Positions 611 to 62,949 of a stretch of 64,000 nucleotides of DNA are shown here, one piece after another. The translations under genes and the position numbers were made by a program. Numbering within the stretch: the stretch's first letter is position 1; the number at the start of each line of letters is the position of its first letter. A model generated the notes under the pieces. The model saw only the letters and a list, made by a program, of their open reading frames with translations. It did not search any database and was not told the origin of the DNA. Source of the DNA: Negativicutes bacterium (GTDB lineage: Bacteria; Bacillota; Negativicutes; UBA1444); assembly GCA_963665275.2 (NCBI GenBank), contig CAXXIN010000013.1:283703-347702 (forward strand). The letters are read 5' to 3'.

Positions 611-666
611 CGAAAATGGATCAAGGCTCTTCGAATAATTATTCGAAGAGCCTTGATCCATTTTCG
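611..666. terminator. Perfect 56-bp palindrome between convergent genes; probable bidirectional terminator
   Basis: CGAAAATGGATCAAGGCTCTTCGAATAA followed directly by its exact reverse complement. Confidence 0.75.
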
Positions 667-670
667 CCGC

Positions 671-1897
671 TTATTCAGCTGGGACTTTTTTTACCAGCGG
701 CCATTTGTCGAAGAAAGTATTCATTAACAGGTAAACCATCATAAAGGCAAACTGGCCGGCCAGCGGCCCCATGACCGGGAACATCCCGCCCAAACTGTTT
801 CCGCCGAAAGTCAGCAACGGGAATGTTTTGAGCCAAACCACACCGAGAACCGAGCCCAACCCGATCCAGATCGCAAGCCGCGTGAACAGGCGTGTTTTGA
901 GATCCGGCACCATCTGGGCCGTCGGATAGTCGTCAAACATGTGATGCCAGAGCAGCAACGTGAAAACGACCGAAAGCTCGAGTGATGCAATAACGAGATC
1001 CACAGGGGCGCCGGGCAATAAATTCAGGGGGCCCACTATGGGACGAAGGATCATCGGAGTGATGATTCCCATCGGCAATGCGATGGCCAGGCCGACCAGT
1101 CCCATGTATGGCTGTTTTTTTGCAAAAAGTTTCATCGGGTAGTGTTCCAGCCCTTCGGCCGGGAGCAGGAAAAAGAAGATGAAGGCTTGCGCAAAAGCCA
1201 GGAAGCCGGTCCACGAGCCGAAAGGCTTGACGACAACCACGTGTCCGTCCAGTGATAAATTCATCAGGCTGGGAAAGAACATGGCGATCCATACGATTAA
1301 TGTAAAAACCGTACTTGTCATCATGACGGCGACACCATCCAGCGGCGCGGGGACTTTGCCGGCAAAGGGCCATTTGTGAAAGCAGGCCACATAGACGATC
1401 TGGACCATGATGACCGCGAGGCAGTAAAAATTGCCAACTTCCCAGCCTTCTATAGACATCTGTACTTCCGCGGCTGTGCTGGGCATGAACAAAATGCCCA
1501 TGCTGAAAGGTTTCCACCAAATGCCGATAAAACCAACCAAGATCAAGAATCCGATAATCCCTGACAAAAAGCCAATCAAAGTGTATCGGACGCCTGCTGT
1601 CGGTTGAAGCTCAGACACGGCATACTTGTTGTAGTTGCCAAAAATCAGGGTCTGCCAGATCCAGGGGTTGATGACCAACCAAAAGAACGTTCCCTCAGCC
1701 AGAACCGAAAGATACTTGGTCACGACCTTTGCATCCACCAGCTTCAGCCCTTCACCCGCGAGTGTCATGCCAACGGATTTCACGATGAGTCCCCAGATCG
1801 GCCAATAAATCAGGGCTACGACGAAACAGATGGTAGTAGCGACGACTCCTGTGGTGAAGATGCTCGGGAACTGTCTTTTTACTAAATATTGGCTCAT
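671..1897 (-). CDS. Polytopic membrane protein (about 10 TM helices), putative transporter of unassigned family
   Basis: Very hydrophobic 408-aa ORF; AGGAGG 7 nt before ATG 1897; last gene of the caiB-acd-fix operon; recurring F-x-x-[WY]-P motif. Confidence 0.8.
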   Translation of the reverse strand: MSQYLVKRQFPSIFTTGVVATTICFVVALIYWPIWGLIVKSVGMTLAGEGLKLVDAKVVTKYLSVLAEGTFFWLVINPWIWQTLIFGNYNKYAVSELQPTAGVRYTLIGFLSGIIGFLILVGFIGIWWKPFSMGILFMPSTAAEVQMSIEGWEVGNFYCLAVIMVQIVYVACFHKWPFAGKVPAPLDGVAVMMTSTVFTLIVWIAMFFPSLMNLSLDGHVVVVKPFGSWTGFLAFAQAFIFFFLLPAEGLEHYPMKLFAKKQPYMGLVGLAIALPMGIITPMILRPIVGPLNLLPGAPVDLVIASLELSVVFTLLLWHHMFDDYPTAQMVPDLKTRLFTRLAIWIGLGSVLGVVWLKTFPLLTFGGNSLGGMFPVMGPLAGQFAFMMVYLLMNTFFDKWPLVKKVPAE

Positions 1898-1926
1898 ATG
1901 CACCCCTCCTGTTTTTTAGGCCCGCC

Positions 1927-2217
1927 TCAACCGTAGCGGTACGAAATCCCGAAAGTCCCGCGCGGATACTCCCATTTGGTGATCCCCTTATCCTTGCACA
2001 TCACGCGGCAGGTGCCGCATTCGAGACAACCGGCATAATCAAAATGAACTTCGCCGTCCTGCAAGGTGTACAGAACCGCCGGGCAAACGACCAGGCAGGC
2101 TTTGTCCGCGCACGTCGCGCAGATGGCTTTATCGATGGTAATATGAGCCTCTTCCTCGTCCACCTCGAATTTGTCGAGGCCAAGGAGTTCTTCGGGAGTC
2201 ATGCTTCGAATCGTCAC
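1927..2217 (-). CDS. fixX: FixX-type ferredoxin-like protein
   Basis: CxxCxxxxCxxxCPA and CLECGTCRVMC..WEYPRGTFGISYRYG; GTGA overlap with fixC stop. Confidence 0.92.
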   Translation of the reverse strand: MTIRSMTPEELLGLDKFEVDEEEAHITIDKAICATCADKACLVVCPAVLYTLQDGEVHFDYAGCLECGTCRVMCKDKGITKWEYPRGTFGISYRYG

Positions 2218-3497
2218 AGTGACCGCCACCCTTTCCACGCATCCGCCAGCAATCTTCCCACGCCGCCGTGAGCTCCAATCGCTTGCCGGATAACGTCCGT
2301 GATCTTGTCCGGCACCCGTCCGTCAACAGTGAAGGCCCCCTTGAAGACAGCCCGCCCCAGTGCCGGATATTCGGTGAACATGCGAGGGTTCGCCAGCAGG
2401 TCCGGATAGCCTGCAAAACGTTTCATCGTTCCAATCAGGCCTATTTTCTCCAGCTCCGCCATGTAAGCCGGACCCGTCGTCGCTGCGTCTTTGGCGGCCA
2501 AAATCCCTTCTGCCGCCGCAATACCGCTGGCAATCGCCAAATCGATCCCGCGCACCACAAAGCCGCCGTTGATGGCGAATCCAGCTGCGTCCCCGATGAT
2601 GAGCAATCCCTCGCGGTAAAGCTTGGACGGAACTCCCCGCCAACCGGCTTCCGGAATCAGATGGGCGCTGTACTCGGCCGTCTCGCCGCCGTCGATGAGA
2701 GGGCGTACTGCCGGATGCAGTTTAAACTCCTGGATGATTTCCTGAACTTTTTTTCCGTGTCGGGCCGCCTCTTCCGGTGAAAAGACCAGCCCGAGCGAAA
2801 TGGAATCCTTGTTGGTGTAAAGAAAGCCACCGCCCTGAATTCCTTCGGTGCAGCCGAGGAACAGGCGCGTTGCCCCCTGCCCGCCTCCTACTTGGAAACG
2901 GGCTTCGATAGCCGCTGCGTCCAGCCGGATCACTTCTTTCACGCCAACCGCAACGGAATGCGGGGTAAGCTCACCGCACAGACCGGCTTTTTGTGCAATA
3001 AGAGAATTGACTCCGTCAGCAGCAATAACCACATCGGCCAGAATTCGGTCTTCACCGGCCTGCACCCCGATGATCCGTCCCCCTTCCTCAACGAGGCCGT
3101 CCACACGAATTCCGGCCGCCAGCATCGCTCCGGCGGACTCGGCCTGCCCGGCCAGCCACTCGTCGAAAGTCGCCCGGAGAATTGTGTAAGAATGGGGCAC
3201 TTCCCCGTCAAAGGCGGGTTCGAAATAGTCTACGGTCGTTGCCGAACCGCCGCTCATCAGTGTGATCTGTTCCCGAATCACTTTTCTTTCCAGCGGAGCT
3301 GCAGCATGCAGACCCGCTTCCAGACGCTCCAGCGCCCAGGTATAGACCCGGCCGCCGGTGACATTTTTCGTCCCGGCCGATGCCCCGCGTTCCACCAGCA
3401 GCACACTCCGGCCGGCCCGGGCCAGCACCAGGGCACAGGCGGAACCTGCCGGTCCCGCCCCGATCACGATAGCATCAAATCTTTCTTCTTCTGCCAT
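2214..3497 (-). CDS. fixC: FixC-type FAD-dependent ETF:quinone oxidoreductase
   Basis: DAIVIGAGPAGS, GTKNVTGGR, GGGFLYTNKDSISLG, GDAAG..RGIDLA; lies between etf genes and fixX. Confidence 0.93.
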   Translation of the reverse strand: MAEEERFDAIVIGAGPAGSACALVLARAGRSVLLVERGASAGTKNVTGGRVYTWALERLEAGLHAAAPLERKVIREQITLMSGGSATTVDYFEPAFDGEVPHSYTILRATFDEWLAGQAESAGAMLAAGIRVDGLVEEGGRIIGVQAGEDRILADVVIAADGVNSLIAQKAGLCGELTPHSVAVGVKEVIRLDAAAIEARFQVGGGQGATRLFLGCTEGIQGGGFLYTNKDSISLGLVFSPEEAARHGKKVQEIIQEFKLHPAVRPLIDGGETAEYSAHLIPEAGWRGVPSKLYREGLLIIGDAAGFAINGGFVVRGIDLAIASGIAAAEGILAAKDAATTGPAYMAELEKIGLIGTMKRFAGYPDLLANPRMFTEYPALGRAVFKGAFTVDGRVPDKITDVIRQAIGAHGGVGRLLADAWKGWRSL

Positions 3498-3508
3498 GTC
3501 CGCCTCCC

Positions 3509-4457
3509 TCAGCCTATCCGGGCCTTCAGTGCGGCCGTCAGCAAAGGCGCCGCTTCGTTGAGATCGCCCACGATTCCGTAATCTGCTGCGGCAAAAATAG
3601 GCGCATTTTCGTTGGTGTCAACCCCAACGATGATCTTGGAATCCCGAATTCCGGCCACATGCTGGACCTGCCCGGAGACGCCAAGTGAAATGTACAGTTT
3701 GGGCCTGATTTTACGACCCGACAAGCCAATGTAGGTTTCTTCCGGCATCCAGCCGTAGTCTTCTGCAATGGACCGAGTGCAGCCGACTGCACCGCCGAGA
3801 AACCGACGCCAGGTCTTCTGCCAGCTTTAAGTCTTCCTGTTTCCCCATGCCGCGTCCCACGCAGACCACGCGTTTCCGCCTCTGCAATATCGGCGCCGCC
3901 GCGCTCTACGGGACACACTTCACCGACGACGGCGCGGCTGGCTGTGTCCGCCTGAACTGTAACCACCTGGGCCGTGCGGGACTGATCCGGCGCAGGCGAC
4001 TCATAGTTTGCCGCCGGCACAGTTACGAGGGTCATTTCGTTCAGTGTCTCAGTGCAGACAGCCAGTCCGTCCGTACATCAGCCGTTCGGTATCTCGAACC
4101 CGGTTGCGCCGCGGCGAACCGAGAAAGCCTCCGATACCAGGCCTGCCCGAAGATGTGCCGCAACCGTCGCGGCGATCTCCTTGCCCCGCAGCGTTGCCGC
4201 TACGAGAAAAAGTTCCGGGGTATGTTCTGAACAAAGTTTAGCCATTGCCGGTGCGTAACTTTTCCGGCCAAGAACTGGCGCCGGTCAGCACATAGACCGT
4301 ATCTGCGCCCGCCGCAGTCAATGCCGGAGTTGAAGCCGAATCCAGCGTCAGCACTCCTACCGTAAAAGGCATTCCATCCGCCAGGTTTCGCGCCAACCCG
4401 ATCAACCGGGCACTCAGCGGCAGCATCTTCGGAAAAAACCCATATACAGGCCATCAT
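3509..4457 (-). pseudogene. fixB: Electron transfer flavoprotein alpha subunit (FixB/EtfA), multiple frameshifts (probably sequence errors)
   Basis: Fragments in several frames: MMACIWVFSE, TERLMYG, GGADIAEAE, YIGLSG..PKLYISLGVSGQVQHVAG..APIFAAADYGIVGDL. Confidence 0.85.
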
Positions 4458-4469
4458 ATTCTCTCCTTC

Positions 4470-5259
4470 CTATGCAAGGACTCCTTCTTTGACCAGCGCA
4501 TCCGCGAGGATTTCCACCCGTTCCGCCATTGTCCCGTCTTTCAGTACGATATTTTTCCGGTTCATCACATAGCCCCGGATACCGGTAACGGTGGTTTTGG
4601 GCGTCAGAGTCAGAAGCTGCCAACCCTAATTCATCCAGTTTTATTTCGGTCTGCGGTTTTTTCGCCGCTGCAAGCACCTGTTTCAATCCGGGGATACGGG
4701 GTTTGTTCACTTCAGGCAATACCGTGACGAGGACCGAGAAAATCGGCCACAACTGTCTCGGTGCAATCACCCAAGCTTGCGTACTGCAGACACCTGGTTT
4801 CCTTCAATCGACAGTTCCTTTACGAACGTGATGACCGGAATTCCAAGCAACGCCGCCACTCGCGGCCCCACTTGCTGGGCATAGGTGTCGGTCGGCGCCT
4901 TCGCCGCACAGGATCAGGTCATAGTTGCCGCTTTTTTTTCAACATGGCCGCCAGCACATTGGCTGTAACAAACCCATCCGTTTTCGCCGCCGCCTCTTCA
5001 CCCGTCCAGAATACTTTATCCGGACCGCGTGAAAGCACGTCCTTGAGGGAGTTCTTCACTCGCCGCCCCGAAGGTCAGGGGCAGACACCTCGCAGCCGCC
5101 TGTCTTTTCGGCGATGAGTACCGCCTCCTCGAGTGCGTTGCGGTCGTAGTCACTGATCTTTGATTTCGCCCGACTGAAGTCGAGTGAGCGATCCGAAGCG
5201 TTGATACGAATATCCTGCTCATCAGGTACCCATTTATAGCATACGGCAATGTTCGCCAT
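4470..5259 (-). pseudogene. fixA: Electron transfer flavoprotein beta subunit (FixA/EtfB), multiple frameshifts
   Basis: MANIAVCYKWVPDEQDI..KISDYDRNALEEAV at the start; PRIPGLKQVLAAAKKP in another frame. Confidence 0.85.
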
Positions 5260-5343
5260 CGCGAATCTCCTTTCATTACGGCCGCCGCAGGACCTACCTC
5301 GGTCCTGCGGCAGCCTCGACATCACAGCTCAATGCCCGAAAAC

Positions 5344-6494
5344 TCAAGATAGTACTGTTCGGCTGATTACCACTTTGCAGATCTCCGAAGTTCCTTCGCC
5401 AATGGTCAGAAGCTTGGAGTCCCGGAGGAACCGTTCCACTTCGAAGTCCTGGCTGTAGCCGTTGCCGCCGTGAATCTGGACAGAACGGTCGCATACCCGG
5501 ACACACATTTCGGATGAGAATAGTTTTCAGCATCGCTGCCTCATGGGTAAACGGCACGCCCGCATCTCGCATGGCGGCAACCCGGTTAGAGCATCGTACG
5601 GGCCAGTTCGATCTCAGTCGCCATGTCTGCAATATAGAAAGCGATGGCTTGGTGGTTCCGCGATCGGCTATGCCGAACTGGATTCGTTCCTTCGCATATG
5701 TAACGGCCCGGTCAAGCGAACCCTGGGCCATGCCGACGGCCATAGCCGAGATAGCGATGCGCCCTTCGTCGAGTCCTTTCATGAACAGCGGGAAGCCCTT
5801 GTTCAGGGCCGCCCAGCAGGTTTCTCTTGAGGAACACGGTCAGTTGCGGAAAATGAGCTCGCCGGTGGCAGAGCTGTGCAGCCCCATCTTCTTTTCCAGT
5901 TTGCCGATTTCAAAACCCGACGTACCTTTTTCAATGATGAAGGCGCTGATGCCGCGCGGCCCCTTTGGAGGGATCGGTTTTGGCTGTGACAATGTAGATT
6001 TCGGCCACACCGACATTGGTAATCCAGCATTTGGACCCGTTGATGACCCATTCGTCGCCTTCGAGCACAGCCACCGTTTTCGAAGCGGCTGCGTCGGAAC
6101 CGGCGCCCGGTTCGGTGAGACCAAAGGACATCAATTTTTCGCCCTTGGCCGCCGGCACCAGATATTTTTTCTTTTGGGCTTCACTGCCCGCCAGGAAGAG
6201 CGGCATGCAGCCTAGCGAAGTGTGAGCGTCGATGATGAGCGCGAGTGAACCGTTTTCCTTGGCGATCTCTTCGATGATCAGGCACTCACTGATCGAATCC
6301 GCACCCGCTCCACCGTACTCTTCGGGAATGGGTATACCTAGAAAGTTGAGTTCGGCGCAGCGTTTCACCAGATCATGCGGGAATTCATGCGCCTGATCCA
6401 ACTTCTTGGTGACTGGCGCCACCTCATTTTTGGCGAATTCACGCGCAATGTTGCGCATTAGTTCATGCTCTTCCGTCAGTTGTATGTGTGACAT
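5344..6494 (-). pseudogene. Acyl-CoA dehydrogenase (second copy), frameshifted in its 3' half
   Basis: FGLTEPGAGSD, INGSKCWITN, RGISAFIIEKG..EKKMG, LDEGRIAI, ERIQFG, C-terminal LTIGEGTSE spread over several frames. Confidence 0.88.
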
Positions 6495-6530
6495 GGATAT
6501 GCCTCCCTGTTATATGAATCATGGGGTTTA

Positions 6531-7667
6531 TCAGCGCAGGGCAATCCCTGATATGACCATCCTCTGAACTTCGGAGGTCCCTTCGTAAATTTCCGTGATT
6601 TTGGCGTCCCGCATGAGGCGTTCGACTTTGGCGCCCCTCATGTAACCGTAGCCGCCTTGAATCTGAATGGCCTTGATCGAATGCTTCATGGCGGTTTCTG
6701 CAGCGAAAACTTTGCAGCAGGCTGCTTCCAACGAGAACGGCTTGCCCGCATCTTTCAGCGAAGCGGCGGTGTGCACCAGCTGGCGCGCTGCCAGGACATC
6801 CATTTGCATGTCGGCGATCATCCACTGGATTGCCTGGTTTGCTGCCAGGGGCTTGCCGAATTGTTTGCGCTCCTTGGCATAGAGGATTGATTCGTCCAGA
6901 CACGCCTGGGCAATGCCCACAGCCTGGGCTCCGATGCCGATGCGTCCGCCATCAAGTGTGCCCATTGCGACTTTGAAGCCATCGCCTTCTTTGCCAATCA
7001 GGTTTGCTTTTGGAACACGGCAATCTTTGAAGAAAATCTCTGTGGTATGGGAGCCGCGTACGCCCATCTTGTCCTCATGCTTGCCTACTGTCCACGGCGA
7101 TACGGCCTTTTCCACGACGAAGGCGCTGATGCCTTTGGTCCCGATGCCCTGAGTGGTCTTTGCCATCACGATCATCAGCCCGCAGCCATCGCCGTTGGTG
7201 ATGAAAGTTTTGGTTCCGTTGAGCACATAATAATCGCCCTCCAGAGTCGCCGTCGTTGCGAGCGCCCCTGCGTCCGAACCGGCGCTGGCCTCTGTCAGAG
7301 CAAACCCGCCGAGGGTTTTGTAGTCGGTAATCATGGGAAGGAACTGGGCTTTTTGTTCGGGCGTTCCGAACATGTAAATCGGCACGCCAGCGAGAAGATG
7401 GCAGGCCAGAATAACTCCGGTGGATGCGCAGGAACGGGACAACTCTTCAATGACCAGCGCGTAGCTCATATAGTCTGCGCCGGCTCCGCCGTATTCGGCC
7501 GGAAACTGGATTCCTGTCATGCCCAATCCAGCCAGCTTCTGCATGGCTTCCGCAGGGAAAATGCCGTCCAAGTCTGTCTTGGATGCTACGGGTTCCAGCT
7601 CCGTCAGTGCGAATTCACGAGCTGCCGCTCGGATGAGTTCTTGTTCCTCTGACAATTCAAATCCCAT
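6531..7667 (-). CDS. Acyl-CoA dehydrogenase (butyryl-CoA dehydrogenase-like)
   Basis: FALTEASAGSD, LNGTKTFITNG, LDGGRIGIGAQAVG, ERKQFGK, QIQGGYGY, KITEIYEGTSE (catalytic Glu). Confidence 0.95.
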   Translation of the reverse strand: MGFELSEEQELIRAAAREFALTELEPVASKTDLDGIFPAEAMQKLAGLGMTGIQFPAEYGGAGADYMSYALVIEELSRSCASTGVILACHLLAGVPIYMFGTPEQKAQFLPMITDYKTLGGFALTEASAGSDAGALATTATLEGDYYVLNGTKTFITNGDGCGLMIVMAKTTQGIGTKGISAFVVEKAVSPWTVGKHEDKMGVRGSHTTEIFFKDCRVPKANLIGKEGDGFKVAMGTLDGGRIGIGAQAVGIAQACLDESILYAKERKQFGKPLAANQAIQWMIADMQMDVLAARQLVHTAASLKDAGKPFSLEAACCKVFAAETAMKHSIKAIQIQGGYGYMRGAKVERLMRDAKITEIYEGTSEVQRMVISGIALR

Positions 7668-7685
7668 TTCGATTCAACCTCCCAG

Positions 7686-8945
7686 TTAAATATTTCCTTT
7701 TTCTTTAAGCGCCTGAATTTTTTCTGGTGAAAAACCTAATATTTTGCTCAAAATCGCTTCCGTATCTTGTCCCACGGTGGGAGCTCCGCGCCAGACCTTT
7801 CCCGGAGTTTCGCTGAATTTCGGCACGATGCCGAAAGCCTTGATTTGCTTCAACAGGGTCTGGTCTTCGTATTCGATGAAGTCGTCTCGGCCGATCCAGT
7901 GTGGGTCAGCTACCGCGTCAGCTGCATTGTATACCTTGTTACAGCCAACTTTGGCCTTGCAAAGGATTGCTTCGATTTCCTGCCAAGTGTGCTGTGCGGC
8001 CCATTCAACCGTTTTATTGTGCAACTCCTGCCCTTTTTCTGACGATACTGCCTGGGGCGAAGAGGCACAGTCCTTGAAATTGAAGTATTCGAGATCAAAT
8101 CCGACAGTCTTGACGAAACGGTTGTATACTCCGGGACCGAAGGCGCCGATGACAACATATTCGCCATTCTTGTCCTGGAACAGCCCGTAAGGCTGGAATG
8201 CGTCGGCCTTCGACGATTGCGTTCTTGCCCGTGTAACATTCGCTTCGGTGAAAGAAACAAAAGTATCAGCCATGATGCGTGCGGCCGCTTCAAACTGTGC
8301 TACATCTATGGCCTGGCCCTTGCCAGTCTTCTGCGCGGAGATGTAGCCTGTCAGCGCCGCGAACGCTGCGGTAAGCGCTGCCTGATAGTCATTGGCCCAA
8401 GGTTTGGTAATCGAAGGCGGACGGTCTTTGTCGCCGTTCAGGAACATCAAACCGCTGGCGGCCTGGCCGATCATGTCGTAGGAAGCGCGGTCGCATTTTT
8501 CGGGATCTCCACCGAACTGGGGACGCCCGTAACCGCTTACGTGTACGATAACCAATTTGGGATTTGTTTCGAGCAGCAGTTCATCCGTGATGCCGTATTT
8601 ATCGAGCCATACCAAGTTTTCCATGAAAATGTCCGATTCTTTAATCAAACCCAGGAACACTTCTTTCACTTCGGGAATGTCGAGATCGAGTTCAAGCGAA
8701 AGGCTCATGCGATTGCGAGCATCCTGTGCCCAGCTGGTGCTGACCTTTTTTCCCTCGTGGACAGCGAAAGGGCCCAGTACGCGAAAGGTATCTCCTACTC
8801 CCGGCCTTTCGATGTGAATGACTTCAGCACCGAAATCCGCCAACATGTTCGCTCCATGCGGCATAGCAACGATAGAGCCTGCGGTTAACGCGCGGACACC
8901 CGCGAGTGGGCCGAACTCGGGAACGAGAAATTGTCGTTTACTCAT
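7686..8945 (-). CDS. Family III CoA-transferase (CaiB/BaiF type)
   Basis: PEFGPLAGVR, ADFGAEVIHIERP, NPKLVIVHVSGYG, RASYDMIGQAASG, PKFSETPGKVWRGAP; GGAGG before ATG 8945. Confidence 0.93.
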   Translation of the reverse strand: MSKRQFLVPEFGPLAGVRALTAGSIVAMPHGANMLADFGAEVIHIERPGVGDTFRVLGPFAVHEGKKVSTSWAQDARNRMSLSLELDLDIPEVKEVFLGLIKESDIFMENLVWLDKYGITDELLLETNPKLVIVHVSGYGRPQFGGDPEKCDRASYDMIGQAASGLMFLNGDKDRPPSITKPWANDYQAALTAAFAALTGYISAQKTGKGQAIDVAQFEAAARIMADTFVSFTEANVTRARTQSSKADAFQPYGLFQDKNGEYVVIGAFGPGVYNRFVKTVGFDLEYFNFKDCASSPQAVSSEKGQELHNKTVEWAAQHTWQEIEAILCKAKVGCNKVYNAADAVADPHWIGRDDFIEYEDQTLLKQIKAFGIVPKFSETPGKVWRGAPTVGQDTEAILSKILGFSPEKIQALKEKGNI

Positions 8946-8987
8946 GTCCATTCCTCCATTTTCTGAATTATTCTTTAATTTACATGT

Positions 8988-9004
8988 TGCAAGAATAATG
9001 CCAA
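8988..9004 (-). promoter_or_regulatory. Sigma-54 (-24/-12) promoter of the caiB-acd-fix operon
   Basis: TTGGCATTATTCTTGCA = GG-N10-GC, about 43 nt upstream of the CoA-transferase start. Confidence 0.85.
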
Positions 9005-9005
9005 G

Positions 9006-9040
9006 AAAAAAGCCGCCGCTCCCAAGCAGGAGCGACGGCA
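9006..9040 (-). terminator. Intrinsic terminator after the activator gene
   Basis: GCCGTCGCTCC / GGAGCGGCGGC stem followed by T6 on the minus strand. Confidence 0.75.
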
Positions 9041-9115
9041 TTTCAGACTATGCAGTTCTGGGCATTAGCGTTTTATAGCTTATGGCGCATGGTTTTTCTT
9101 CGCCCTCACCAATTT

Positions 9116-9232
9116 TATGCGATATTGCACATTACACCAACCATAGGTTATGCAATCCGTCACAAAGCAAGCATTTGTTTGCTATCTATCTTCCATGTGC
9201 AATTCTGCACTAGAGTTATGCGAATTTGCACT
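9116..9232. promoter_or_regulatory. Four candidate enhancer (UAS) sites T(A/G)TGC(A/G)-N4-TGCAC
   Basis: 9116 TATGCGATATTGCACA; 9149 TATGCAATCCGTCACA; 9196 TGTGCAATTCTGCACT; 9217 TATGCGAATTTGCACT; 110-230 nt upstream of the sigma-54 promoter. Confidence 0.6.
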
Positions 9233-10642
9233 TTTCTTAAATATTCCGTATTTTTGTTTCTTGCGTGTTAGTGTCGACATATCGATTCCCAATTGTCCGG
9301 CCGCATCCAGAAGCGTGTCCGTGTTCTGCATCGCCTTCAAAATCAGAGCTTTTTCCACTTTTTCGACGACGGTTTTCAGGGACATCGCATCAGATAGGCG
9401 TATCGCTTCCGCCGTAAATAAATTCTCCGAGAATTGCTCTGGCAGATGATCGATCCGAATGACATCTTCTTGGCAAAGCACCATTGCCCGCTCAATCGTG
9501 TGTTCCAATTCACGCACATTGCCTGGCCAATCATAACTCATCAGCGCTTCACATACTTCATTGCTCATCGCTTTGTTCTGATGGTACTTCTCATTGCATC
9601 GTTTCACAAAATAGGTCATAAGAGGCGGGATATCATCTTTTCTCTCCCTGAGGCTCGCAATGGTTATTTTGAACATGTTAAGACGATAGTAAAGATCCCG
9701 CCGGAATTTCCCAGCCGCCACCAACGCTTCAACATCCTTGTTCGTCGCGGCGATAATCTTAACGTCAACTGGAATTTCCTTCGTATCGCCGAGGCGCATA
9801 ATGGTTTTCTCCTGCAATACTTTCAAAAGTTTTGCCTGCATCAATAGGGGGAGTTCGGCAACTTCATCCAAAAACAGTGTTCCTTTGTCGGCGATTTCGA
9901 GCAAACCAGGTTTGCCACCTTTGTTCGCGCCAGTAAAAGCGCCGGCGACGTAACCGAATAACTCCGATTCGAACAGTGCTTCTGGAATCGCGCCGCAGTT
10001 GACGTGAACCAAAGTGCCTTCGCTAACTCGGGAACTGTGTTTATGCATAAATCGGGCAAGTACGTCTTTTCCTACCCCCGATTCTCCAAGAATCAGCGCT
10101 GTTGAATCCACCTTTGCGATGCGTGCGGCCATCTGCAGCATCGTTCTGGATCGGCGGTCCTTAGCGATAAAATCGCTGTCTTCCAATTGTTGCAAATGCA
10201 AATTATCAAGCTGCTGCTTGTATCGCTCGGACTTCTGTTTGACGGAGTTGAGTTCCCGATATACTTCGGTCAACCGGTTCCAGTCCCTCATGGTGCAAAC
10301 GATCAGGCTCAGTTCTCCTTGGGAGTTAAATACCGGTTTGCCGGTGACGATAACGTCTTTTTCCTCTTTGCCCATATAATTCAGGATACAGGTAACCGGC
10401 TGCAAAGCTCGCATCACTTTCTGGCAGACGGAGTCATTGAGGTACCCCTTGTCTAGCATATACTGAACATTTTTGCCGAGCAGTTCTTCCCGGGACAAGG
10501 TGGTGATTTTTTCAAAATTAGTGTTGACCGCTACGATCAAGCCGTTTTTATCTGCGATAAAAACGCCCGCGTCGATTGCCTCAATAATCTTGGCAACAAA
10601 TTTATTGGTTGCCAGAGAGTAGTCAATATTCAAATGCCGCAC
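9182..10642 (-). CDS. PAS-domain sigma-54-dependent transcriptional activator
   Basis: N-terminal PAS, GESGVGKD, ESELFGY..GAFTGA, LFLDEV, WPGNVREL, C-terminal HTH; start may be TTG 10633. Confidence 0.95.
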   Translation of the reverse strand: MRHLNIDYSLATNKFVAKIIEAIDAGVFIADKNGLIVAVNTNFEKITTLSREELLGKNVQYMLDKGYLNDSVCQKVMRALQPVTCILNYMGKEEKDVIVTGKPVFNSQGELSLIVCTMRDWNRLTEVYRELNSVKQKSERYKQQLDNLHLQQLEDSDFIAKDRRSRTMLQMAARIAKVDSTALILGESGVGKDVLARFMHKHSSRVSEGTLVHVNCGAIPEALFESELFGYVAGAFTGANKGGKPGLLEIADKGTLFLDEVAELPLLMQAKLLKVLQEKTIMRLGDTKEIPVDVKIIAATNKDVEALVAAGKFRRDLYYRLNMFKITIASLRERKDDIPPLMTYFVKRCNEKYHQNKAMSNEVCEALMSYDWPGNVRELEHTIERAMVLCQEDVIRIDHLPEQFSENLFTAEAIRLSDAMSLKTVVEKVEKALILKAMQNTDTLLDAAGQLGIDMSTLTRKKQKYGIFKKSANSHNSSAELHMEDR

Positions 10643-10876
10643 CCCTCATAATACGATCCAGCTAAGATTCCTTGTTGGAAGGCTTCGCCGCACAACAGGA
10701 AACTCCTGCACGTAGCCAAGGAGTTGTGGCAGCACCTATTTCACACTATATTCAATTGCATTATTTTTCTTTTCTCAACTGGATCCCCAGTCTCTGCCAC
10801 TCCCTGGCCATAAGCCAGCTCAGTTTTTCAGCCGATCTGTCCCCTCTTTGCCCAAACTATTATTCTTGCTTCCACT

Positions 10877-11827
10877 TCAGAAGGTATTTTTAAGCGTTAC
10901 TTCCATTTTGGTATTTTTGGTGTTGTCCGCCAGGGCGACCTGATCTTTGTAGACCACTTCCAAAGATAGCTTGTCATTGAAGGAATGAGTTATTCCGTAG
11001 TAAAATCCTCGATTGTTGTTGTCATACTCACTTTGTTGCCCCATGTCGCCATTGGCCTCCACGCGAAAATTGGTCACATACAGGGCTGTTTTATCAGTGA
11101 ACTGATAATTCCAGGTTATTGCGTACGCTTTGTTTTCATCACTCTTATTCGACTGGGTGTATTCTGCCGTCAGACTATTTTTGCCAGAAGTAACGGTTCC
11201 ATCCACAGCCCAGTGATTGCTGTTCTCTGCATTGTAATATTGATATTGAGCCAGCGTGAGCCCCACATTTGCATTCTTTGACAGGCTGTACCCGGCTCTC
11301 ATTGCATACAAGCTGTTGTTGGGCAGCCATATACTGTTTTCGCGGGCCACGATTCCCGATAAGTCGATAACGCCGATGCTGCCAGTGATGGAAAGCCCGT
11401 CTACGAAGGCATTGTTGCCGACATTCGTTTCCGGTCGGTTGTACAGCAGTTCAGTGACGCCCACGGCGATATCCTGCCGCCCCAATTTGTAGACGAGTTT
11501 ATTGGACTTGTAGATCAGGCCGAACTGATCAATGGTTGCAATTGCTTTGGTATCTTGCCCATACACCGACAAGTCATAGTCTCCCAAGATCGGATTACTG
11601 GCATATTGGGCGCCAAGTCGTCCATACAGGGACAGCCCTTTGCCTATTTTTTTCTCGCCCTTTAGTGTCAATGTGTACATCATGCCGGACTCTGCTGCAG
11701 TATTTTCAGCCGTGTCGGCTTCATATTTGACCGAGACGTCCCCGCTGATTTCCACCGGTGCGGCAGCTCCAACCGGCATCATGGCGAACATCAACCCAGT
11801 CATGATCGTTGCAATATAGGTTTTCAC
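10877..11827 (-). CDS. Porin-like outer-membrane beta-barrel protein
   Basis: Signal peptide, alternating amphipathic beta-strands rich in Y/G/N/T, C-terminal Phe. Confidence 0.65.
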   Translation of the reverse strand: MKTYIATIMTGLMFAMMPVGAAAPVEISGDVSVKYEADTAENTAAESGMMYTLTLKGEKKIGKGLSLYGRLGAQYASNPILGDYDLSVYGQDTKAIATIDQFGLIYKSNKLVYKLGRQDIAVGVTELLYNRPETNVGNNAFVDGLSITGSIGVIDLSGIVARENSIWLPNNSLYAMRAGYSLSKNANVGLTLAQYQYYNAENSNHWAVDGTVTSGKNSLTAEYTQSNKSDENKAYAITWNYQFTDKTALYVTNFRVEANGDMGQQSEYDNNNRGFYYGITHSFNDKLSLEVVYKDQVALADNTKNTKMEVTLKNTF

Positions 11828-32609: not shown

Positions 32610-32626
32610 TGCAAGAGCCGTGCCAA
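32610..32626 (-). promoter_or_regulatory. Sigma-54 promoter of the nicotinate operon
   Basis: TTGGCACGGCTCTTGCA, near-perfect -24/-12 consensus, about 28 nt before ndhS. Confidence 0.92.
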
Positions 32627-36153: not shown

Positions 36154-36170
36154 TGCAAGAATTATGCCAA
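36154..36170 (-). promoter_or_regulatory. Sigma-54 promoter ahead of the soluble chemoreceptor
   Basis: TTGGCATAATTCTTGCA (GG-N10-GC), about 48 nt before ATG 36106. Confidence 0.78.
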
Positions 36171-54556: not shown

Positions 54557-56319
54557 TTACATCCGGTTGTCCGCTTTTTTAAACAAATCAACCGAACACT
54601 CCCCCGGTTCAGCTGCAAAAGCATAACCAACCGAAAGACTCACCGGAATATCAGAGTCAGTTTGTTGTGCTTGTTCCTCCATCGTTTGAAGCAACCGGCC
54701 AAAAATTTCTTCCACTGCGACTTCGGCGGCATTGCGCAAGATAATGGCAAATTCATCTCCGCCAATCCTCGCCACTACATCCTCCTGCCGAACGCTCCGG
54801 CTCAACAACCCCGCAGCACGGCTCAGCATTTCATCGCCTTTGGAATGACCCCAGGTATCATTCACCAGCTTCATGCCATCGACATCAGCGACAGCAATGG
54901 CCACCGACCCACTGTGACGGCCATCGAGACGCCGCAACTCCTCTTCGAAGTAAGCACGGTTATAGACTCCGGTCAGAGCATCATGGAAGCTGATGAAGCG
55001 CAACCGCTCCTCCGACTCCCGTCGGGCCGTAATTTCGAAGAAGGTAACGACAACCTGTTCGATGTGCCCCGTGTCGCTAAAGTCAGGAAATGCGTCTACT
55101 TGAAACCATCTGGTCACGTTGTTCTGTCTGATTCCCATCGTATAGTCGCGTAAGGCTTCGCCCTTCGCCAACACCAAGCGGGCCGGAAAATCCGTTGCAG
55201 GCAGTCTGTCTCCTTGGTTTGAAATATATTCCCAACCGGTTGGAAAATGAGCTTTCCCGGTAAGTTGCCCGTCCGTCAGGCAAGCAAGATCCAAAGCTGC
55301 CGTATTCCAAAATGTTGGATTTCCAACATCATCATGAACGATGACGCCAATGGCAAGATTCATTAGCAAATCCCGAAATTTTCGTTCACTCTCGGCCAAA
55401 GCCCTAGTTTTACGGTTCACGGTCCGGCGCAGCAACCAGTTCCAAAGCAGCAGCAAAACGGATATCAGTAGAATTGAACCGATAATCGCGATTCGCAACC
55501 GATAATCAATGGCAGAAACCGGTGCGGTATCCCCGAACCATTTTCGATCGATGTTCCCGTATTCAGCTTCACTTATTTGCGCAAAGCCAGACTCCACCAG
55601 TTTCAGTGTATCGGAGTCCCCCTTGCGCACGGCCCGGTGAAACTCGCCGAAATAGATCGGCTGCGAAAACCGGATTTCATCTCGCAAACCGTTTTTAAGC
55701 AGGTAATACAGTCCCGGTTGTTTTTCCATGATGAAAATCAACAGACTGTTGTCGCGCGCCGCCATAATTAAGGCTTCATAGCTCTTATACTCAACGATGC
55801 CGGAAATCCCAGCTCTTTTTAGAACCGCCGTCGAATGGCCGCCGCCTTTTACCCCGACGTTGAATCCTCGGAGAGATTCTATGCCCGTAATTCCTGGCAA
55901 GTTTTTGTTGAAAAAGATAACGGTATCCAGGCGCGTATAAGGTCTGGAGAAATCATAAATCTGTTCGCGCTCCGGATTTATAAAGATCGTGTCGATAACG
56001 TCGTGACGTCCGGCTTGCATCTCCGACTGGGCTTTTGCCCAGTCCATTCGCCGCAACTTCAACTGTAATCCCGGTTTTCTTTTCCCACAGCGCCCACTGA
56101 TCAATCAATAGGCCGGTTAACTTTCCTTCCCCGTCGCGAAAGACATAGGGTGGACAAGTTGTCGTCCATCACGACTTTCAAAACCCGTGGTTCGGTTGCT
56201 AAGCTTTGTGACATAGACAAGAAACCCAGTACCAGAACCAGGATTCCCGTCGCCAATATCAGGAAGGTTTTATGTCCGGAACACTTCTTGTCCATTGCCA
56301 TTTTTATGTAATTCGGCAT
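54557..56319 (-). pseudogene. Periplasmic-binding domain-TM-PAS-GGDEF diguanylate cyclase, frameshifted near both ends
   Basis: Signal peptide plus LKVVMDDN in one frame; PBP, TM, HDALTGVYNR, RQED, GGDEF in another. Confidence 0.85.
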
Positions 56320-56405
56320 GGCGTTTTTTTATTCCTGTTTTTTCTTATTTTGCTTATGAATCATTTGCCTTTCCATTGGTCCTTTTCCTTACGTCGCAAT
56401 GTTTA

Positions 56406-57440
56406 TTAGCGCTGCACCCGGCCTGAACCGTCACCCTTCATCAAGCCTTCGACTTCGATAACACTTACGAGATTGAAATCACCAGGAATAGTATGCTTCA
56501 GACAGGATGCAGCCACCGCAAACTCGATGGCCTGCTGGTTGTCCAGTCCCTGCAGCATTCCGTAAAGCAGACCGCCGCCGAAGGAATCACCCCCACCGAC
56601 ACGGTCCACAATGTGGATGTCGTACTTTTTCGATTGGAAAAACTCGCCCATGGACGAATCATACAAAATGGCAGACCAGCCGTTGTCGGAAGCCGAATAG
56701 CTTTCCCCGCAGAGTAATCGCAACTTTTTTGAATCCGAACCGAGCCACCAGCTTGCGGCAAACCTCTTTGTAGCCGGCATCATCAATCTTTCCCGACTGC
56801 ACTTCCGTGTTTTCAGCCTTGATCCCAAATACCTTCTCCGCATCTTCTTCATTGGCGATGGCGACATCTACAAAGGGCATCAGCGTGCTCATGACCTCGT
56901 TGGCTTTGGCTGAACTCCACAGGTTTTTCCGGAAGTTCAGGTCGCAAGTCACCGTCAAGCCGGCCCTTTTTTGCCGCCTGAACCGCTTCGAGGCTCACAG
57001 CCGCAGCGCTGTCGCTCAGGGCAGGCGTGATCCCTGTTATGTGAAATATTTCTGCTCCCGCAAATATCGCCGCCCAGTCGAATTCGCCGGGCTGAACCTT
57101 CGCGATGGCCGAATCCTTGCGGTCATAAATCACTTTGGAAGCCCGCTGCGAAGCGCCGGTTTCCAGATAGTAAATTCCCAACCGGCTGCCCTTCCATCTT
57201 GATGTAGTCCGGTCTTGATACCGTATTTTTGCAGAAAGCAGCGGCAAGCCTGGCCGATCTCATGAGGCGGCAGTTTAGTGACAAGTAAGCGTCATAGCCA
57301 TATTGCGCCAACGAAGCCGCAACATTGGCCTCTTCCGCCGGCATAGGTCGCATCAAAGGAATTTGCCTGCAAGAAGCGCTGATAACCGGGAGGCGCCAAT
57401 CGCATCATAACTTCCCCGAAGGTGACGACTTTTTGCTCAT
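56406..57440 (-). pseudogene. kdgK: PfkB-family 2-keto-3-deoxy sugar acid kinase, frameshifted
   Basis: AEEANVAASLA, LGIYYLETGASQR, DLNFRKNLW, DRVGGGDSF..LKHTIPGD in different frames. Confidence 0.87.
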
Positions 57441-57453
57441 CGTTATTCCCTCC

Positions 57454-58095
57454 TTACTTGCTTCTGGCAGCCTTGATATTATCCACAAATAGACGGGCAG
57501 CAGCCGTGACTGCGGCATAATCGCCGGTCTTGGCGCCAGCCGTCAGCGATCCCCCTACACCGAGCGCTACGCGCCCGCATCAAACCATTCCTTGACGTTG
57601 CCGGCAGTTACGCCGCCGGTCGGCATGAGTGGCGCCTGCGGGATCGGTCCATGCACAGCCTTGATGAATTGCGGCCCCAATAGCTCGCCGGAAATACCTT
57701 CACGATATCGGCGCCCGCTTCCATGGCTTCCACAACTTCCCTGACGCTCATTGCACCCGGCATGCTAGGTACTTGATAGCGGTTGCAAAGCTTGATGACA
57801 TCGGTATTGAGGCAGGGAGTAACTACGTACTCGGCCCCGGCAAGAATCGCCGCCCGCGCGGTCTCGGGATCAAGCACCGAACCCACGCCCAGCGTGATTC
57901 CTTCGACATTGCAGAAAACAGATAATTCCCTGATCACTTCGAGCGCGCCCGGAACCGACATCGTTACTTCGATGACCTTGATACCGCCAGCACTGATTGC
58001 ATCCACAATCTTTTCGCTTTTTCGGCGTCATCGGTCCTTACGATCGCTACAATTCCGCTTTGTAGCACTTTCCCCAAAATATCCAGCTTTTTCAT
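57454..58095 (-). pseudogene. eda: KDPG/KDPGal aldolase, frameshifted
   Basis: GIVAIVR, IEVTM, GVGSVLDPETARAAILAGA, GADIVKVFP. Confidence 0.87.
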
Positions 58096-58152
58096 TTCAT
58101 CCGCTCCTTTCTGTGTCTCTGGCGTCTCCCTTGTCCCCCCGGGTTTATCAGT

Positions 58153-59300
58153 CTACCATTCCGCAACGGTTCCATCCGCATGGCGCCACACCGGATTATG
58201 CCAATCGTGTCCGACTATAGCCATCTTCTTCACATGTTCTTCATTAATGACGATTCCCAGACCCGGCCCGCCGGGTATTTTCACCATGCCATTTTCATAG
58301 GCAAAGACGCTTCGATCGGCCAGATAGTCCAGAAGATCGGTGCCCTGATTATAATGGATACCCAAACTCTGCTCCTGGATAAACACATTGTGGGCCGTCG
58401 CGTCCACCTGCAAGCAGGCGGCCAGCGCAATCGGTCCGAGGGGGCAATGGGGAGCGATCGCCACATCATAAGCTTCCGCCATGGCAAATATTTTCTTGCA
58501 TTCAGTAATGCCGCCGGCGTGTGACAGATCCGGCTGCAGAATATCAGCATATCCATCGTTGAGAGCTTTTTTGAAATCCCAGCGGGAAAACATGCGCTCT
58601 CCAATCGCGATGGGAATGTTCGTGTGGTTGGCTATCTCCCGCAGCGCCTCATTGTTCTCCGGCAAGACCGGCTCTTCGATGAACATCGGACGATATGGTT
58701 CCAGCTCCTTCGCAAGCACTTTGGCCATCGGCTTATGCACGCGGCCGTGGAAATCGACTCCAATCCCCACGTCAGGACCAACCGCCGAGCGAACTTCCGC
58801 GATGCGGGCAACGCCGCATCAATCTCCCGGTAAGAATCAACATACTGCAATTCATTGGTACAATTCATTTTGACGGCGGTGAAGCCTCGCTGCACCATTT
58901 CTTTGGCTGCTTTTCCCACGTCACTTGGGTGGTCGCCGCCGATCCAGGAATACACTCGCACGGTATCCCGACAGGCCCCCCCCCAGCAGTTGATAAATCG
59001 GTGCATATATAAACTTACCCTTGATGTCCCACAGCGCCTGGTCAATACCGGCAATGGCACTCATCAGAATCGGACCGCCCCGGTAGAATCCGCCCCGGTA
59101 CATGACCTGCCAGTGGTCTTCGATGCGCATAGGATCCTTGCCAATTAGCCCTTGCGCCAACTCTTCGACCGCCGCCTTCACAGTTGCGGCTTTGCCTTCG
59201 ATCACCGGCTCTCCCCAACCATCGATCCCCTCATCGTGCTGATTTTGAGAAACAGCCAGCGTGGTGGCACCTGATAACAGGTAAAAGAGACTATTTTCAT
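58153..59300 (-). pseudogene. dgoD: Galactonate dehydratase, frameshifted
   Basis: [76 protein letters not shown]. Confidence 0.92.
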
Positions 59301-59304
59301 ACAG

Positions 59305-59481
59305 TCACCCCTTATTCTTATCAGCCGACGTAGCAGCAGATTCCTTCGCTTTGGCTTGTTCCAGTATTTCACGCACTGCATCCGGCATCTGTTCCGGGTC
59401 GAAAGCTGCTTCATGGCAGGCATTTCCGTCTTCCGGCTGCGGGAAAATCCTTCCGAGAACTTTACCGAGCAGTTTGTTCAT
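59305..59481 (-). CDS. Small hypothetical protein (58 aa), below ORF-track cutoff
   Basis: GGAGGGGAGG RBS; MNKLLGKVLGRIFPQPEDGNACHEAAFDPEQMPDAVREILEQAKAKESAATSADKNKG fills the gap between two genes. Confidence 0.55.
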   Translation of the reverse strand: MNKLLGKVLGRIFPQPEDGNACHEAAFDPEQMPDAVREILEQAKAKESAATSADKNKG

Positions 59482-59505
59482 CAGCTTGCCCTCCCCTCCA
59501 GAAAG

Positions 59506-60726
59506 TCATCGCGACATCAGTTCTTTGTCACCGCGTAGCCTTCGCACTGCAGCGCGGCCAAATTTCTCAGTGTGAGCCGTATCGCGGGTTTCCAGGCTGA
59601 CCTGCACCTTGGCCTGTCCGAGCGGCACATCATGTTGAATCCGGTCATGATGAACATATAATACGTTGCCGCGGCAGGCGGCTATGCTGGCCAGCAGTTT
59701 TTGCAACGCGCCAGGCCGGTCAATTACATAGGTAGTCAAGATAACCCGTCGGCCGGCCTTCACCAGCCCGCGCTCGATGATGCGGGCAATAAAGTTAACG
59801 TCAATATTACCGCCGGAAATCAGACAGGCCACTGGTCCGCTCGCCGCAATCTTGCCGTGCATCAGTGCGGCGAGTCCGATCGCTCCTGCACCTTCCGCCA
59901 ACAATTTCGCGCGTTCCAGCAGCATCAGGATAGCGGAGGCGATCGCTTCATCATCGATAGTAACAATATCATCCACATAGTTGCGCACCACTTCAAAGGT
60001 CGCATCACCCGGCACTTTGACTGCGATTCCATCGGCAATGGTTGTAGCCGCTGCCGTTTGGAGCAGCTTGCCTGCTTTTTGGGAAAGAGCCATGGCTGGG
60101 GCGCCTTCCGCCTGAACTCCATATACTTTGATATGCGGCGCCAGTTCTTTGATTGCTGTCGCCACCCCGCGATCAGACCGCCCCCGCCAACAGGCACGAC
60201 GACCGCTTCCACTCCCGGCAGCGCTTTCAATATCTCCAGTCCAAGGGTTCCCTGTCCGGCCATGACTGCCGGATCATTGAATGCGTGGACAAAACGTGAG
60301 GCCTTCTTCTGTTTCCAGTTGCTTCGCCCGTGCAAAGGCTTCGTCATAGGAAGATCCCGACAGCACCACTTCAGCGCATACCCGCGCGTTGCGCTCACTT
60401 TGGATAGCGGAGCCGTCTCCGGCATGACAATGACGGAACGAATTCCTGCGTGGCGGGCGGCATAGAGCGACCCCCTGCGCGTGGTTGCCGGCCGAGGCCG
60501 CAATTACGCCGCGCACCTTTTCTGTTGGCGACAACAAGCGAATCTTGTTATAGGCGCCACGCAGTTTGAAGGAGCCGGTCTTTTGCAAGTTTCCAGCTTC
60601 AGATAAACCGGAAATCCGGTTATGCCTGAAAAAGTGGAGCTCCCTTCGAGCGGAGTCTCATGCGCGACCCCAGCCAATGCTGTCGCCGCTGCCCGAATAT
60701 CATCCAAAGAATAGAAATGGTTTCAT
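59506..60726 (-). pseudogene. ilvA: Threonine ammonia-lyase with C-terminal ACT domain, frameshifted
   Basis: [56 protein letters not shown]. Confidence 0.9.
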
Positions 60727-61594
60727 TCTACAGCTTCCTCCCCCCGATGCAAAATAAAGAGCCCCGCGAGAATGATCGCGCCGCCGGCTGCCTGCGGCCA
60801 GCCGAAGCTTTCACCCAATAGCAGGACCGAAAGAACCACCGTCAACACGGGTTCCAGATTCATGACGATGGAAGCGTCCGACGGGCCCACCAGCCGCATA
60901 CCGACAAAGAACAGCACAATGCCGATAAAATTGGCGAAGAAGGCAGTTCCGAAGAGCGCAGCCCAGGCAACAGGCGGCAGCGTCAGCTGCAGCTCCCCAG
61001 ATATTGCTCCATAGACAATGAAAACAGCCGAAGTCGTCAGCGCAGACCATCCCACCGTCAAGAGCGGCGAAAGGGTGGTGACGATCGCATGACTCAACAA
61101 AACATGGCACGCCTGCCCAAAAGCCGCAGCGACACCGAATAACAGACCTGCTGTCGAAAACCGATCCAAAGATACCCCCCAACACCTGCAACAAGCCGGC
61201 AAAGCAGATCAACAGCGCTGCCAAACTTAAGCCGGTTCAGCGCCTCCCGACCGATGAGCACGGCCAGCCCCGTCACCATGGCCGGATACAGGTAAAAAAT
61301 CAATCCGGTGAGTGAAGCCGGCAACAATTGAACAGAGAGAGTATAGAGAATCGATACTGCAACATGGACCAAGCCGCCCAAGACCAAAATTCGTGGCCAA
61401 TACGCGCTTGGCAGAACAAGGCTCTGGCCTTTAAAACACAAGGCGCCAATGCACAGAGCCGCTGAAAACAGAAAGCGAAACGCCAACAGGGTGGTGAGAT
61501 TCACTCCTGCAGCAAAAGCCACCTTCATAAAGATTGCCAACGTAGAAAACGCCGTCGCGGCGACAAGCAATAACAGCAGGCCCTGCCTGTTCAA
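60723..61594 (-). pseudogene. EamA/DMT family transporter, one frameshift near 61215
   Basis: LLAFRF, IFYLYPAMV, VGPSDASIVMNLEPV; two halves in different frames. Confidence 0.87.
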
Positions 61595-61606
61595 TCCTTC
61601 GATTAC

Positions 61607-62192: not shown

Positions 62193-62321
62193 TTCAACAA
62201 AAATTAACCACTCCTTTATAGAGATAGTATTCCACGGAATCCCCCGAAAAACCTTTGTCCGGGTGCACTACCTCGTGAAAAAATCCGGCCACCTAGCCGG
62301 GATTCCAGATTTATTCGCTAT

Positions 62322-62933: not shown

Positions 62934-62949
62934 TTGCTTCTCCCATCTT

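Follow-up and report, generated by a model that had tools for sequence, protein, structure and literature searches.

The window analysed here is a stretch of 64,000 nucleotides from the genome of a Negativicutes bacterium (contig CAXXIN010000013.1), and its minus strand carries at 671-10642 an operon that combines a sigma-54 activator, a coenzyme A (CoA) transferase, two acyl-CoA dehydrogenases (ACADs), the electron transfer flavoprotein (ETF) FixAB, the quinone-linked pair FixCX and a membrane protein. The elements follow one another as activator gene, hairpin, -24/-12 site, CoA-transferase gene, acd1, acd2, fixA-fixB-fixC-fixX and membrane protein gene. Gene identities and order agree with those given in an earlier note made from the letters of this DNA and, as stated there, no gene for a crotonase (enoyl-CoA hydratase), CoA ligase, thiolase or BCCT transporter lies within 671-10642. 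There is no bai gene in the operon, the link to BaiF being known from automatic names only. The features are the following:

9182..10642, minus strand: sigma-54 activator with PAS domain, 486 amino acids (PF00158, PF13426/PF00989, PF02954)
9002..9039, minus strand: intrinsic-terminator-like hairpin with T run (hairpin at 9012-9039; 12 pairs, 9 of them GC), a consensus match only
8989..9003, minus strand: sigma-54 -24/-12 promoter site, a pattern match overlapping the end of the T run
7686..8945, minus strand: class III CoA-transferase, 419 amino acids (PF02515)
6531..7667, minus strand: Acd1, butyryl-CoA-dehydrogenase-like ACAD, 378 amino acids, with a Tyr-Glu active-site pair; under every NCBIfam cut-off
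5344..6494, minus strand: Acd2, 380 amino acids if intact, with a Gly-Glu pair and the clade-specific pocket residue Asp89; frameshifts only in the assembly
4470..5259, minus strand: FixA (ETF beta) of the E. coli FixA/YdiQ type; frameshifts only in the assembly
3509..4457, minus strand: FixB (ETF alpha); frameshifts only in the assembly
3800..5960, no strand: assembly stretch with 23 spurious inserted bases, from the comparison with genome G001 and the run contigs
2214..3497, minus strand: FixC, flavoprotein of ETF:quinone oxidoreductase, 427 amino acids, with the quinone-binding domain PF21162
1927..2217, minus strand: FixX ferredoxin, with a GTG start, placed from homologues, that overlaps the fixC stop
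671..1897, minus strand: polytopic membrane protein, 408 amino acids, without Pfam family; probable carboxylate permease from its neighbour genes
611..666, no strand: 56-bp perfect inverted repeat between the operon end and the convergent upstream gene, read directly from the sequence

In the assembly, acd2, fixA and fixB are broken by 18 frameshift events relative to the intact orthologues of G001 (5, 7 and 6, respectively), all at about 3800-5960, and none of the 11 genomes compared from the same genus (completeness 73-100%) has a match to the transferase; both observations would suit a decaying pseudogene cluster. This explanation was rejected, its probability being negligible. The contigs of two runs, X1 (spanning 637-6267) and X2 (spanning 637-10700), represent two samples from two studies, one of which may be the source of the window itself, and each shows 0 other letters and 23 gap letters against the window. 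Since both lack precisely the 23 extra bases and carry no substitution, the frameshifts are insertions made by the assembly, and the true inactivation of fixA, fixB and acd2 that the earlier note had reckoned with is not what these contigs contain. The indel rows listed (12 of 22) all correspond to bases left out in the run contigs, between 3800 and 5060, and a strain of a third study lacks the extra bases at 4 of the 5 listed places that it covers. Broken and unbroken genes are also equally close to G001, with 87% protein identity for Acd2 and 88% for Acd1. The operon is real and its acd2, fixA and fixB are intact, a case showing that closely spaced frameshifts in a metagenome-assembled genome can come from assembly error alone. 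A second fragmented stretch, at 56000-64000 by the contig end, contains a sugar-acid kinase, aldolase, dehydratase, threonine dehydratase and permease in pieces (names given by eye); it probably reflects the same assembly problem, and findings there need care.

The -24/-12 pattern matches 10 times across the window against 4.78 expected and is weak on its own. Such a site precedes the CoA-transferase gene in all 8 orthologous loci that have the activator in front, compared with 1 of the 7 distinct loci without activator, and rpoN is present in the genome, which upholds the sigma-54 promoter proposed earlier. No RNA sample is listed among those that carry this DNA, a result that bears in neither direction on expression. 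The activator, 67% identical to that of the orthologous operon in G001 and 61% to that of locus L032, is likely the substrate sensor of the operon. The terminator-like hairpin stands between its gene and the operon, and the inverted repeat at 611..666 is a probable bidirectional terminator. Two further good minus-strand -24/-12 sites occur in the window (32611-32625 and 36155-36169), and the genome holds about 20 sigma-54 activators as judged by motif. Upstream of the activator on the same strand, at 10877-11827, lies a gene of 316 amino acids without Pfam match that resembles, by eye, an outer-membrane beta-barrel protein.

The transferase matches PF02515 with 311.8 bits, which places it among class III CoA-transferases, and the catalytic Asp at CaiB position 169 is present in it and in 120 of 120 homologues. 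Its nearest solved relative is CaiB (34% identity); against the CaiB equivalog model it scores 264.6 bits, below the cut-off of 413. The acidic CaiB positions 23 and 249, which we take to have a role in carnitine binding, are I and G in the window transferase, and none of the 120 homologues has a Glu at either place. These two replacements, together with the lack of CaiT, CaiC and CaiD in the operon, speak against crotonobetaine, one of the substrates considered in the earlier note; a match to CaiT at E 1e-15 is also missing from the genome. Matches to the transferase were found in 7 of 401 genomes of the class and 9 of 401 of the phylum (own genome included) and in 3 metagenome loci, with a single match in the family's other genus. 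The named ones belong to Sporomusa and Sporomusaceae (64-79%), among them a 79% homologue of Sporomusa sphaeroides DSM 2875, and suggest that the host is probably a Negativicute.

FixA, FixB and FixC are 38, 34 and 48% identical to E. coli FixABC and 36, 36 and 49% identical to YdiQRS. In the alignment, FixA carries the motifs of the E. coli FixA/YdiQ type, unlike the bifurcating-type EtfB of locus L015, the group-2 ETF beta motif having been set by comparison with that EtfB. Bifurcation was proposed for group 2 ETFs only (PMC6085437). By motif, FixAB appears to be a non-bifurcating ETF of the Cai/Ydi type, and it is accompanied by FixCX as in Cai/Fix, an arrangement that supports the previously suggested CoA-cycling loop tied to quinone. 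FixC modules number three in the own genome and six in G208.

Both dehydrogenases retain the catalytic Glu as described earlier, within IYEGT in Acd1 and IGEGT in Acd2. They are 45% alike and form separate supported clades in a quick tree, both distant from CaiA (28-30% identity) and YdiO (31-32%). Their closest solved relatives are butyryl-CoA dehydrogenases, CarC and Bcd being among the top ones, and Acd1 and Acd2 remain below the cut-offs of the CaiA model (190.3 and 182.8 bits, cut-off 540), the YdiO-family model (223.9 and 239.8 bits, cut-off 537) and the CHCoA-DH model (317 and 321 bits, cut-off 650). A separate YdiO-family gene of the same genome does exceed its cut-off. With the transferase at 34% to CaiB and the dehydrogenases at 28-32% to CaiA and YdiO, no tight clustering with a characterised operon, which the earlier note had considered fatal to its proposal, is seen.

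Acd2 has a distinctive pocket. Among 85 homologues position 89 is Asp in 84 and Glu in 1, being acidic in all, Glu70 occurs in 63, and site 243 (the helix-G Glu position) is Gly in every one; at these two places the top five solved relatives carry Ser and Tyr instead. The GEGT pattern is found in 72 of the 85 homologues, the remaining 13 being unmatched by the pattern. A Gly in isovaleryl-CoA dehydrogenase opens space for the beta branch of the substrate (PMC12369846), and Ala88 lines the substrate chamber of the Geobacter dehydrogenase Ch1DH (PMC9293079). By numbering rather than direct alignment, Asp89 of Acd2 would correspond to this Ala88 and not to Asp91 of Ch1DH, and no Ch1DH-type protein was present at the 10 ACAD loci examined for the Asp91 mapping. 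Because Acd2 combines a Gly before the catalytic Glu with an acidic residue 89, its substrate is probably a bulkier, polar C3-substituted chain.

The earlier note had also suggested that the two dehydrogenases could form a heteromer, and an enzyme that always needs both subunits and acts on one bulky substrate would explain why acd1 and acd2 are adjacent in the window and at 3 of 11 close loci. A complex prediction on the G001 pair lends this weak support (0.59 against 0.01 for the best control), with at least 97% of contacts shared between runs and partner predicted local distance difference test (pLDDT) values of at least 91. Of the solved pairs, 51 of 78 attained the mark used, as did 2 of 108 mismatched ones, but the range up to 0.60 holds just 5 of the 78 solved pairs and each of the 4 mismatches that passed; since homo-oligomers of ACADs are solved, the pass probably reflects likeness only. 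Against such an enzyme, the catalytic Glu is kept in both proteins, leaving no subunit without it, and the genes are separable, with Acd2 only at L032 and L143 and Acd1 only at L043. As the proteins belong to separate clades and each is found alone elsewhere, an obligate heteromer is unlikely, and a mutual dependence of the two dehydrogenases is not supported. A real candidate heteromer was noticed in a sister module of G208 (L121:7078-9394, contig G208:C93), where a YdiF-like transferase and FixABCX accompany two ACADs, the second without catalytic and C-terminal motifs.

The membrane protein is the newest part of the operon and represents a small undescribed family without family model. It has no Pfam match, and none of 27 family members matches NCBIfam; a profile search over 1.84 billion representatives gave 43 matches, 3 near-full-length clusters and no distant relatives, and the ESM Atlas returned unnamed clusters only. 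The predicted structure (pLDDT 85.5) contains at least 8 hydrophobic segments. Foldseek matched it to no known transporter fold (best E 0.02, TM 0.16), the best VIA result was a designed helical barrel (Z 8.0, root-mean-square deviation 6.6, 225 aligned), and the best internal repeat reached an HHalign probability of 24%. The model thus appears to lack a fold match, by which a new fold is not proved. A cytochrome role was set aside, the sole invariant His being two adjacent ones. Homologues of the protein follow the Fix genes in L032 and an ACAD gene in the own paralogue and are missing from the G001 operon, and other permeases (SatP, MFS, GntP-like) fill the same slot in sister modules. In 18 of 25 loci of its family, the surrounding 10 kb contain a gene for a CoA-transferase, a ligase, an ACAD or a reductase of the FabK-like or old-yellow-enzyme type, a count in which many loci are kin and which has no background rate. 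A carboxylate permease is the plainest and a probable reading. The paralogue (52%; L026, G000:C13:200406-205763) is preceded by genes for a sigma-54 activator, for a transferase of the AtoDA type and for an ACAD in which Val replaces the catalytic Glu; in L032, an ACAD of the same clade follows another fixABCX set beside an AhlS-like lactonase gene. In Vagococcus, Enterococcus and Erysipelothrix (L018, L019, L021, L023, L025), the permease gene belongs to thiolase-hbd-crotonase-atoDA clusters in which a FabK-like gene replaces Bcd/ETF, possibly an ETF-free butyrate or crotonate route.

The neighbourhoods of related transferases place the operon in a wider series. The gene order of the G001 operon is the same as that of the window operon. 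At 57% identity or more there are 11 distinct transferase loci, L033 and L041 being identical DNA: both ACADs are found at 3, Acd2 only at 1 and Acd1 only at 1, while a sister ACAD lies directly behind the transferase at 2 and Fix genes directly behind it at 4. Thiolase and Hbd genes are absent from all 11 clusters. Assemblies of activator, transferase, ACAD, FixABCX and permease, with crotonase as an optional member, recur with different parts in G047, G208, G657 and G697, and two further copies of the activator-transferase-ACAD-FixABCX layout are present in the own genome. The layout is a common modular design in these anaerobes and no one-off. In family f65 (L055-L059) the transferase stands beside the hydrogenase maturation genes hypF/D/E in 5 of 5 genomes, in three of which neither ACAD nor Fix genes occur at that place. 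NiFe-hydrogenase matches were obtained in 4 of 4 f65 genomes tested, and the two loci read encode a small, a large and a cytochrome-b-like subunit. All 3 genomes tested for UbiA-family genes have them; thiolase was found in 0 of 5, HMG-CoA (3-hydroxy-3-methylglutaryl-CoA) lyase in 0 of 4, and 3 of 5, G770 among them, have no crotonase. In f65 the donor side is present and downstream catabolism was not found.

On balance it is somewhat probable that the operon encodes a sigma-54-controlled, ATP-free reductive loop in which one or two alpha,beta-unsaturated acids serve as respiratory electron acceptors. Most likely it acts like the E. coli carnitine system, but the acid would be a different one and the membrane protein belongs to an undescribed family. 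The membrane protein would swap the enoate for the saturated product, and the class III transferase, judging from CaiB, would hand the CoA of the saturated acyl-CoA on to the newly imported enoate; because CoA is recycled from product to enoate in this way, no ligase would be needed once the loop is primed. Acd1 and Acd2 would work as separate enzymes on one shared ETF, the residues of Acd1 pointing to a short straight or 2-branched chain and those of Acd2 to a bulkier one, substituted at C3 and ending in a polar group that meets Asp89. Electrons would run from menaquinol through FixCX to the non-bifurcating FixAB, the quinol being made by an 11-subunit Nuo that would pump protons; the genome indeed contains such a complex (nuoA-D, H-N; G000:C19:63529-73238) without adjacent EFG, and no Rnf was found in the genome. 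In E. coli, Fix transfers electrons to crotonobetaine, a proposed organic electron acceptor (PMC2131755). The reductive direction is further favoured by the f65 genomes, with their donor side and no catabolism found, by the MenA-like genes of the own genome, by its missing leucine-type route for a beta-branched product, by the lack of thiolase and Hbd at the 11 close transferase loci, and by the gene neighbours of the permease family. Among substrate classes, branched short-chain enoates are a tentative choice, level with the mixed remainder of other acids; aryl/heteroaryl acrylates seem slightly less probable and amino- or hydroxy-ended C5 acids doubtful. The 5-hydroxyvalerate/valerate route of Clostridium viride (PMC8473912) was considered as a candidate.

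Several observations weigh against the reductive loop. The genome holds elsewhere 5 thiolase-like genes and several each of the Hbd-like and crotonase-like kinds; because it has both activities elsewhere, the lack of hydratase and thiolase genes in the operon is no proof of a dead end, and the word orphan chosen in the earlier note holds for the operon and not for the cell. DmsABC-like and Mfr-like quinol sinks are encoded as well. Neither MenD nor MqnA was found in the genome (92.6% complete), and quinone would for this reason depend on salvage; two MenA-like genes, one over cut-off, are present, and the quinone chain may rely on salvaged naphthoate. The potentials of enoyl/acyl-CoA (-125 or -10 mV) straddle that of menaquinone (-74 mV) and fail to decide the direction (PMC3582634). 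Transferases at 45-54% include three in full beta-oxidation clusters (L061-L063, 45-51%) and one at a locus with a crotonase and another ETF type. Acd2 matches 3 of 401 genomes of the class, the new one being G020, where the orthologue (75%, Asp89 kept) is accompanied by a YdiF-like transferase, crotonase, thiolase and FabG-like reductase. The f65 dehydrogenases are without Asp89, which makes these modules sisters rather than orthologues, and the five f65 genomes (85-99% complete) are kin.

Much of this evidence would suit the opposite direction, in which a saturated acid is activated and desaturated, electrons pass through FixABCX and menaquinone to dimethyl sulfoxide- or fumarate-type reductases, and crotonase, Hbd and thiolase act in trans. 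The beta-oxidation genes and quinol sinks of the genome, the G020 cluster and the distant transferase relatives all agree with such an oxidative entry, as do the ETF-to-menaquinone flow of butyryl-CoA oxidation in Syntrophomonas wolfei (PMC3582634) and the oxidative use of a CoA-transferase with two ACADs in Geobacter (PMC9795900). It is opposed by the retention of sister modules in f65, where thiolase was found in none of the five genomes, and by the 11 closest transferase loci, whose only catabolic gene is a crotonase fragment of 152 aa lying upstream of the activator in L032. A beta-branched product would, moreover, find no methylcrotonyl-CoA-type carboxyltransferase: because the single carboxyltransferase of the genome sits inside a methylmalonyl-CoA mutase cluster, there is no leucine-type route for it. 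The earlier note had allowed for either reduction or formation of the double bond, and reduction now appears the better supported, while oxidation is a serious and still rather unlikely competitor. A dismutation or amino-acid side branch, in which an enoate or Vor-derived branched acyl-CoA is part oxidised in trans and part reduced here, would make the operon a redox-balancing arm and not a respiratory one. A 67% transferase orthologue closes a buk-ptb-vor cluster in G034 (one locus), VorB exceeds its cut-off in 6 of the 10 genomes examined, this one among them, and permease homologues lie inside the thiolase-hbd-crt-atoDA-fabK clusters. Such a branch is nevertheless improbable, given a non-bifurcating ETF with FixCX that offers no obvious NADH entry, the lack of any FixC match in G034 and VorB over cut-off in 0 of 4 f65 genomes.

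A more specific form of the reductive loop is put forward tentatively, namely a proton-pumping enoate respiration without Rnf, in which electrons would flow from ferredoxin through Nuo, salvaged menaquinone and FixCX/FixAB to ACADs of an undescribed clade, with an enoate that bears nitrogen or hydroxyl bound by the pocket Asp. The module would be served by a carboxylate exchanger of undescribed fold and would be one of a series of plug-in modules. If this were true, the plug-in modules would amount to a broad, uncharted range of organic electron acceptors. CoA-dependent, quinone-linked use of organic acids as electron acceptors has been documented chiefly in the carnitine metabolism of E. coli, and if the module and its sisters work in the manner proposed, respiration of organic acids in uncultured Negativicutes and related anaerobes goes beyond what annotation indicates. 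The undescribed enoate respiration envisaged in the earlier note is retained in so far as reduction is favoured; the design itself is known, from the E. coli Cai/Fix precedent (PMC2131755) and from the recurrence of the layout. Novelty is carried by the pocket signature of Acd2, a defined clade, and by the membrane protein, a compact family and good structural target, rather than by the layout.

Among described systems, caiTABCDE-fixABCX of E. coli shares with the window operon CoA cycling by a class III transferase, an ACAD-family reductase, the same ETF subtype with FixCX, and a permease. It differs in its BCCT antiporter, ligase, hydratase and CaiE (CaiT, CaiC and CaiD not being co-encoded in the window operon), whereas the window operon has a sigma-54 activator, two Bcd-like ACADs with C-terminal Glu and a transferase that is 34% identical to CaiB and non-acidic at CaiB positions 23 and 249. 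The ydiF-ydiO-ydiQRST-fadK genes of E. coli likewise unite a CoA-transferase and an ACAD with a FixABCX-like set; YdiF is, however, a class I transferase and the window enzyme one of class III, and the window operon is without ligase and aroD/ydiB. A class III transferase reportedly acts in the cyclohexanecarboxylate pathway of Geobacter metallireducens. This pathway resembles the window operon in having one transferase and two ACADs with no hydratase between (PMC9795900), and its Ch1DH differs in using Asp91/Asn241/Thr363 with no catalytic Glu (PMC9293079). Both window ACADs keep this Glu. Clostridial Fld/Had-AcdA/B-EtfAB systems perform CoA-cycling enoate reduction by Bcd-like ACADs. The same applies to the Car system of Acetobacterium woodii (PMC6085437). 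In contrast to the window operon, whose ETF lacks the bifurcating motif and is joined by FixCX in a genome where no Rnf was found, Car and Fld/Had rely on NADH and a bifurcating ETF and have no FixCX.

Acd2 shares with isovaleryl-CoA dehydrogenase a Gly replacing Tyr before the catalytic-loop position (PMC12369846); that enzyme has a helix-G Glu and a loop Ala, whereas in Acd2 the Glu is in the loop, Asp89 is an addition, and the score against Bcd exceeds that against isovaleryl-CoA dehydrogenase. In distinction to the Liu pathway, no Liu-type carboxylase lies near the window operon. Carboxylate permeases of the AtoE, CaiT and SatP types are like the membrane protein in role only, through their place in CoA-transferase operons, and no sequence, profile or fold likeness to it was found. 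A literature search whose coverage excluded most subscription journals returned no description of the operon or of the Acd clades. Taken as a whole, the operon is Cai/Fix-like in its working without being a member of the Cai/Fix, Ydi, Car or cyclohexanecarboxylate systems.

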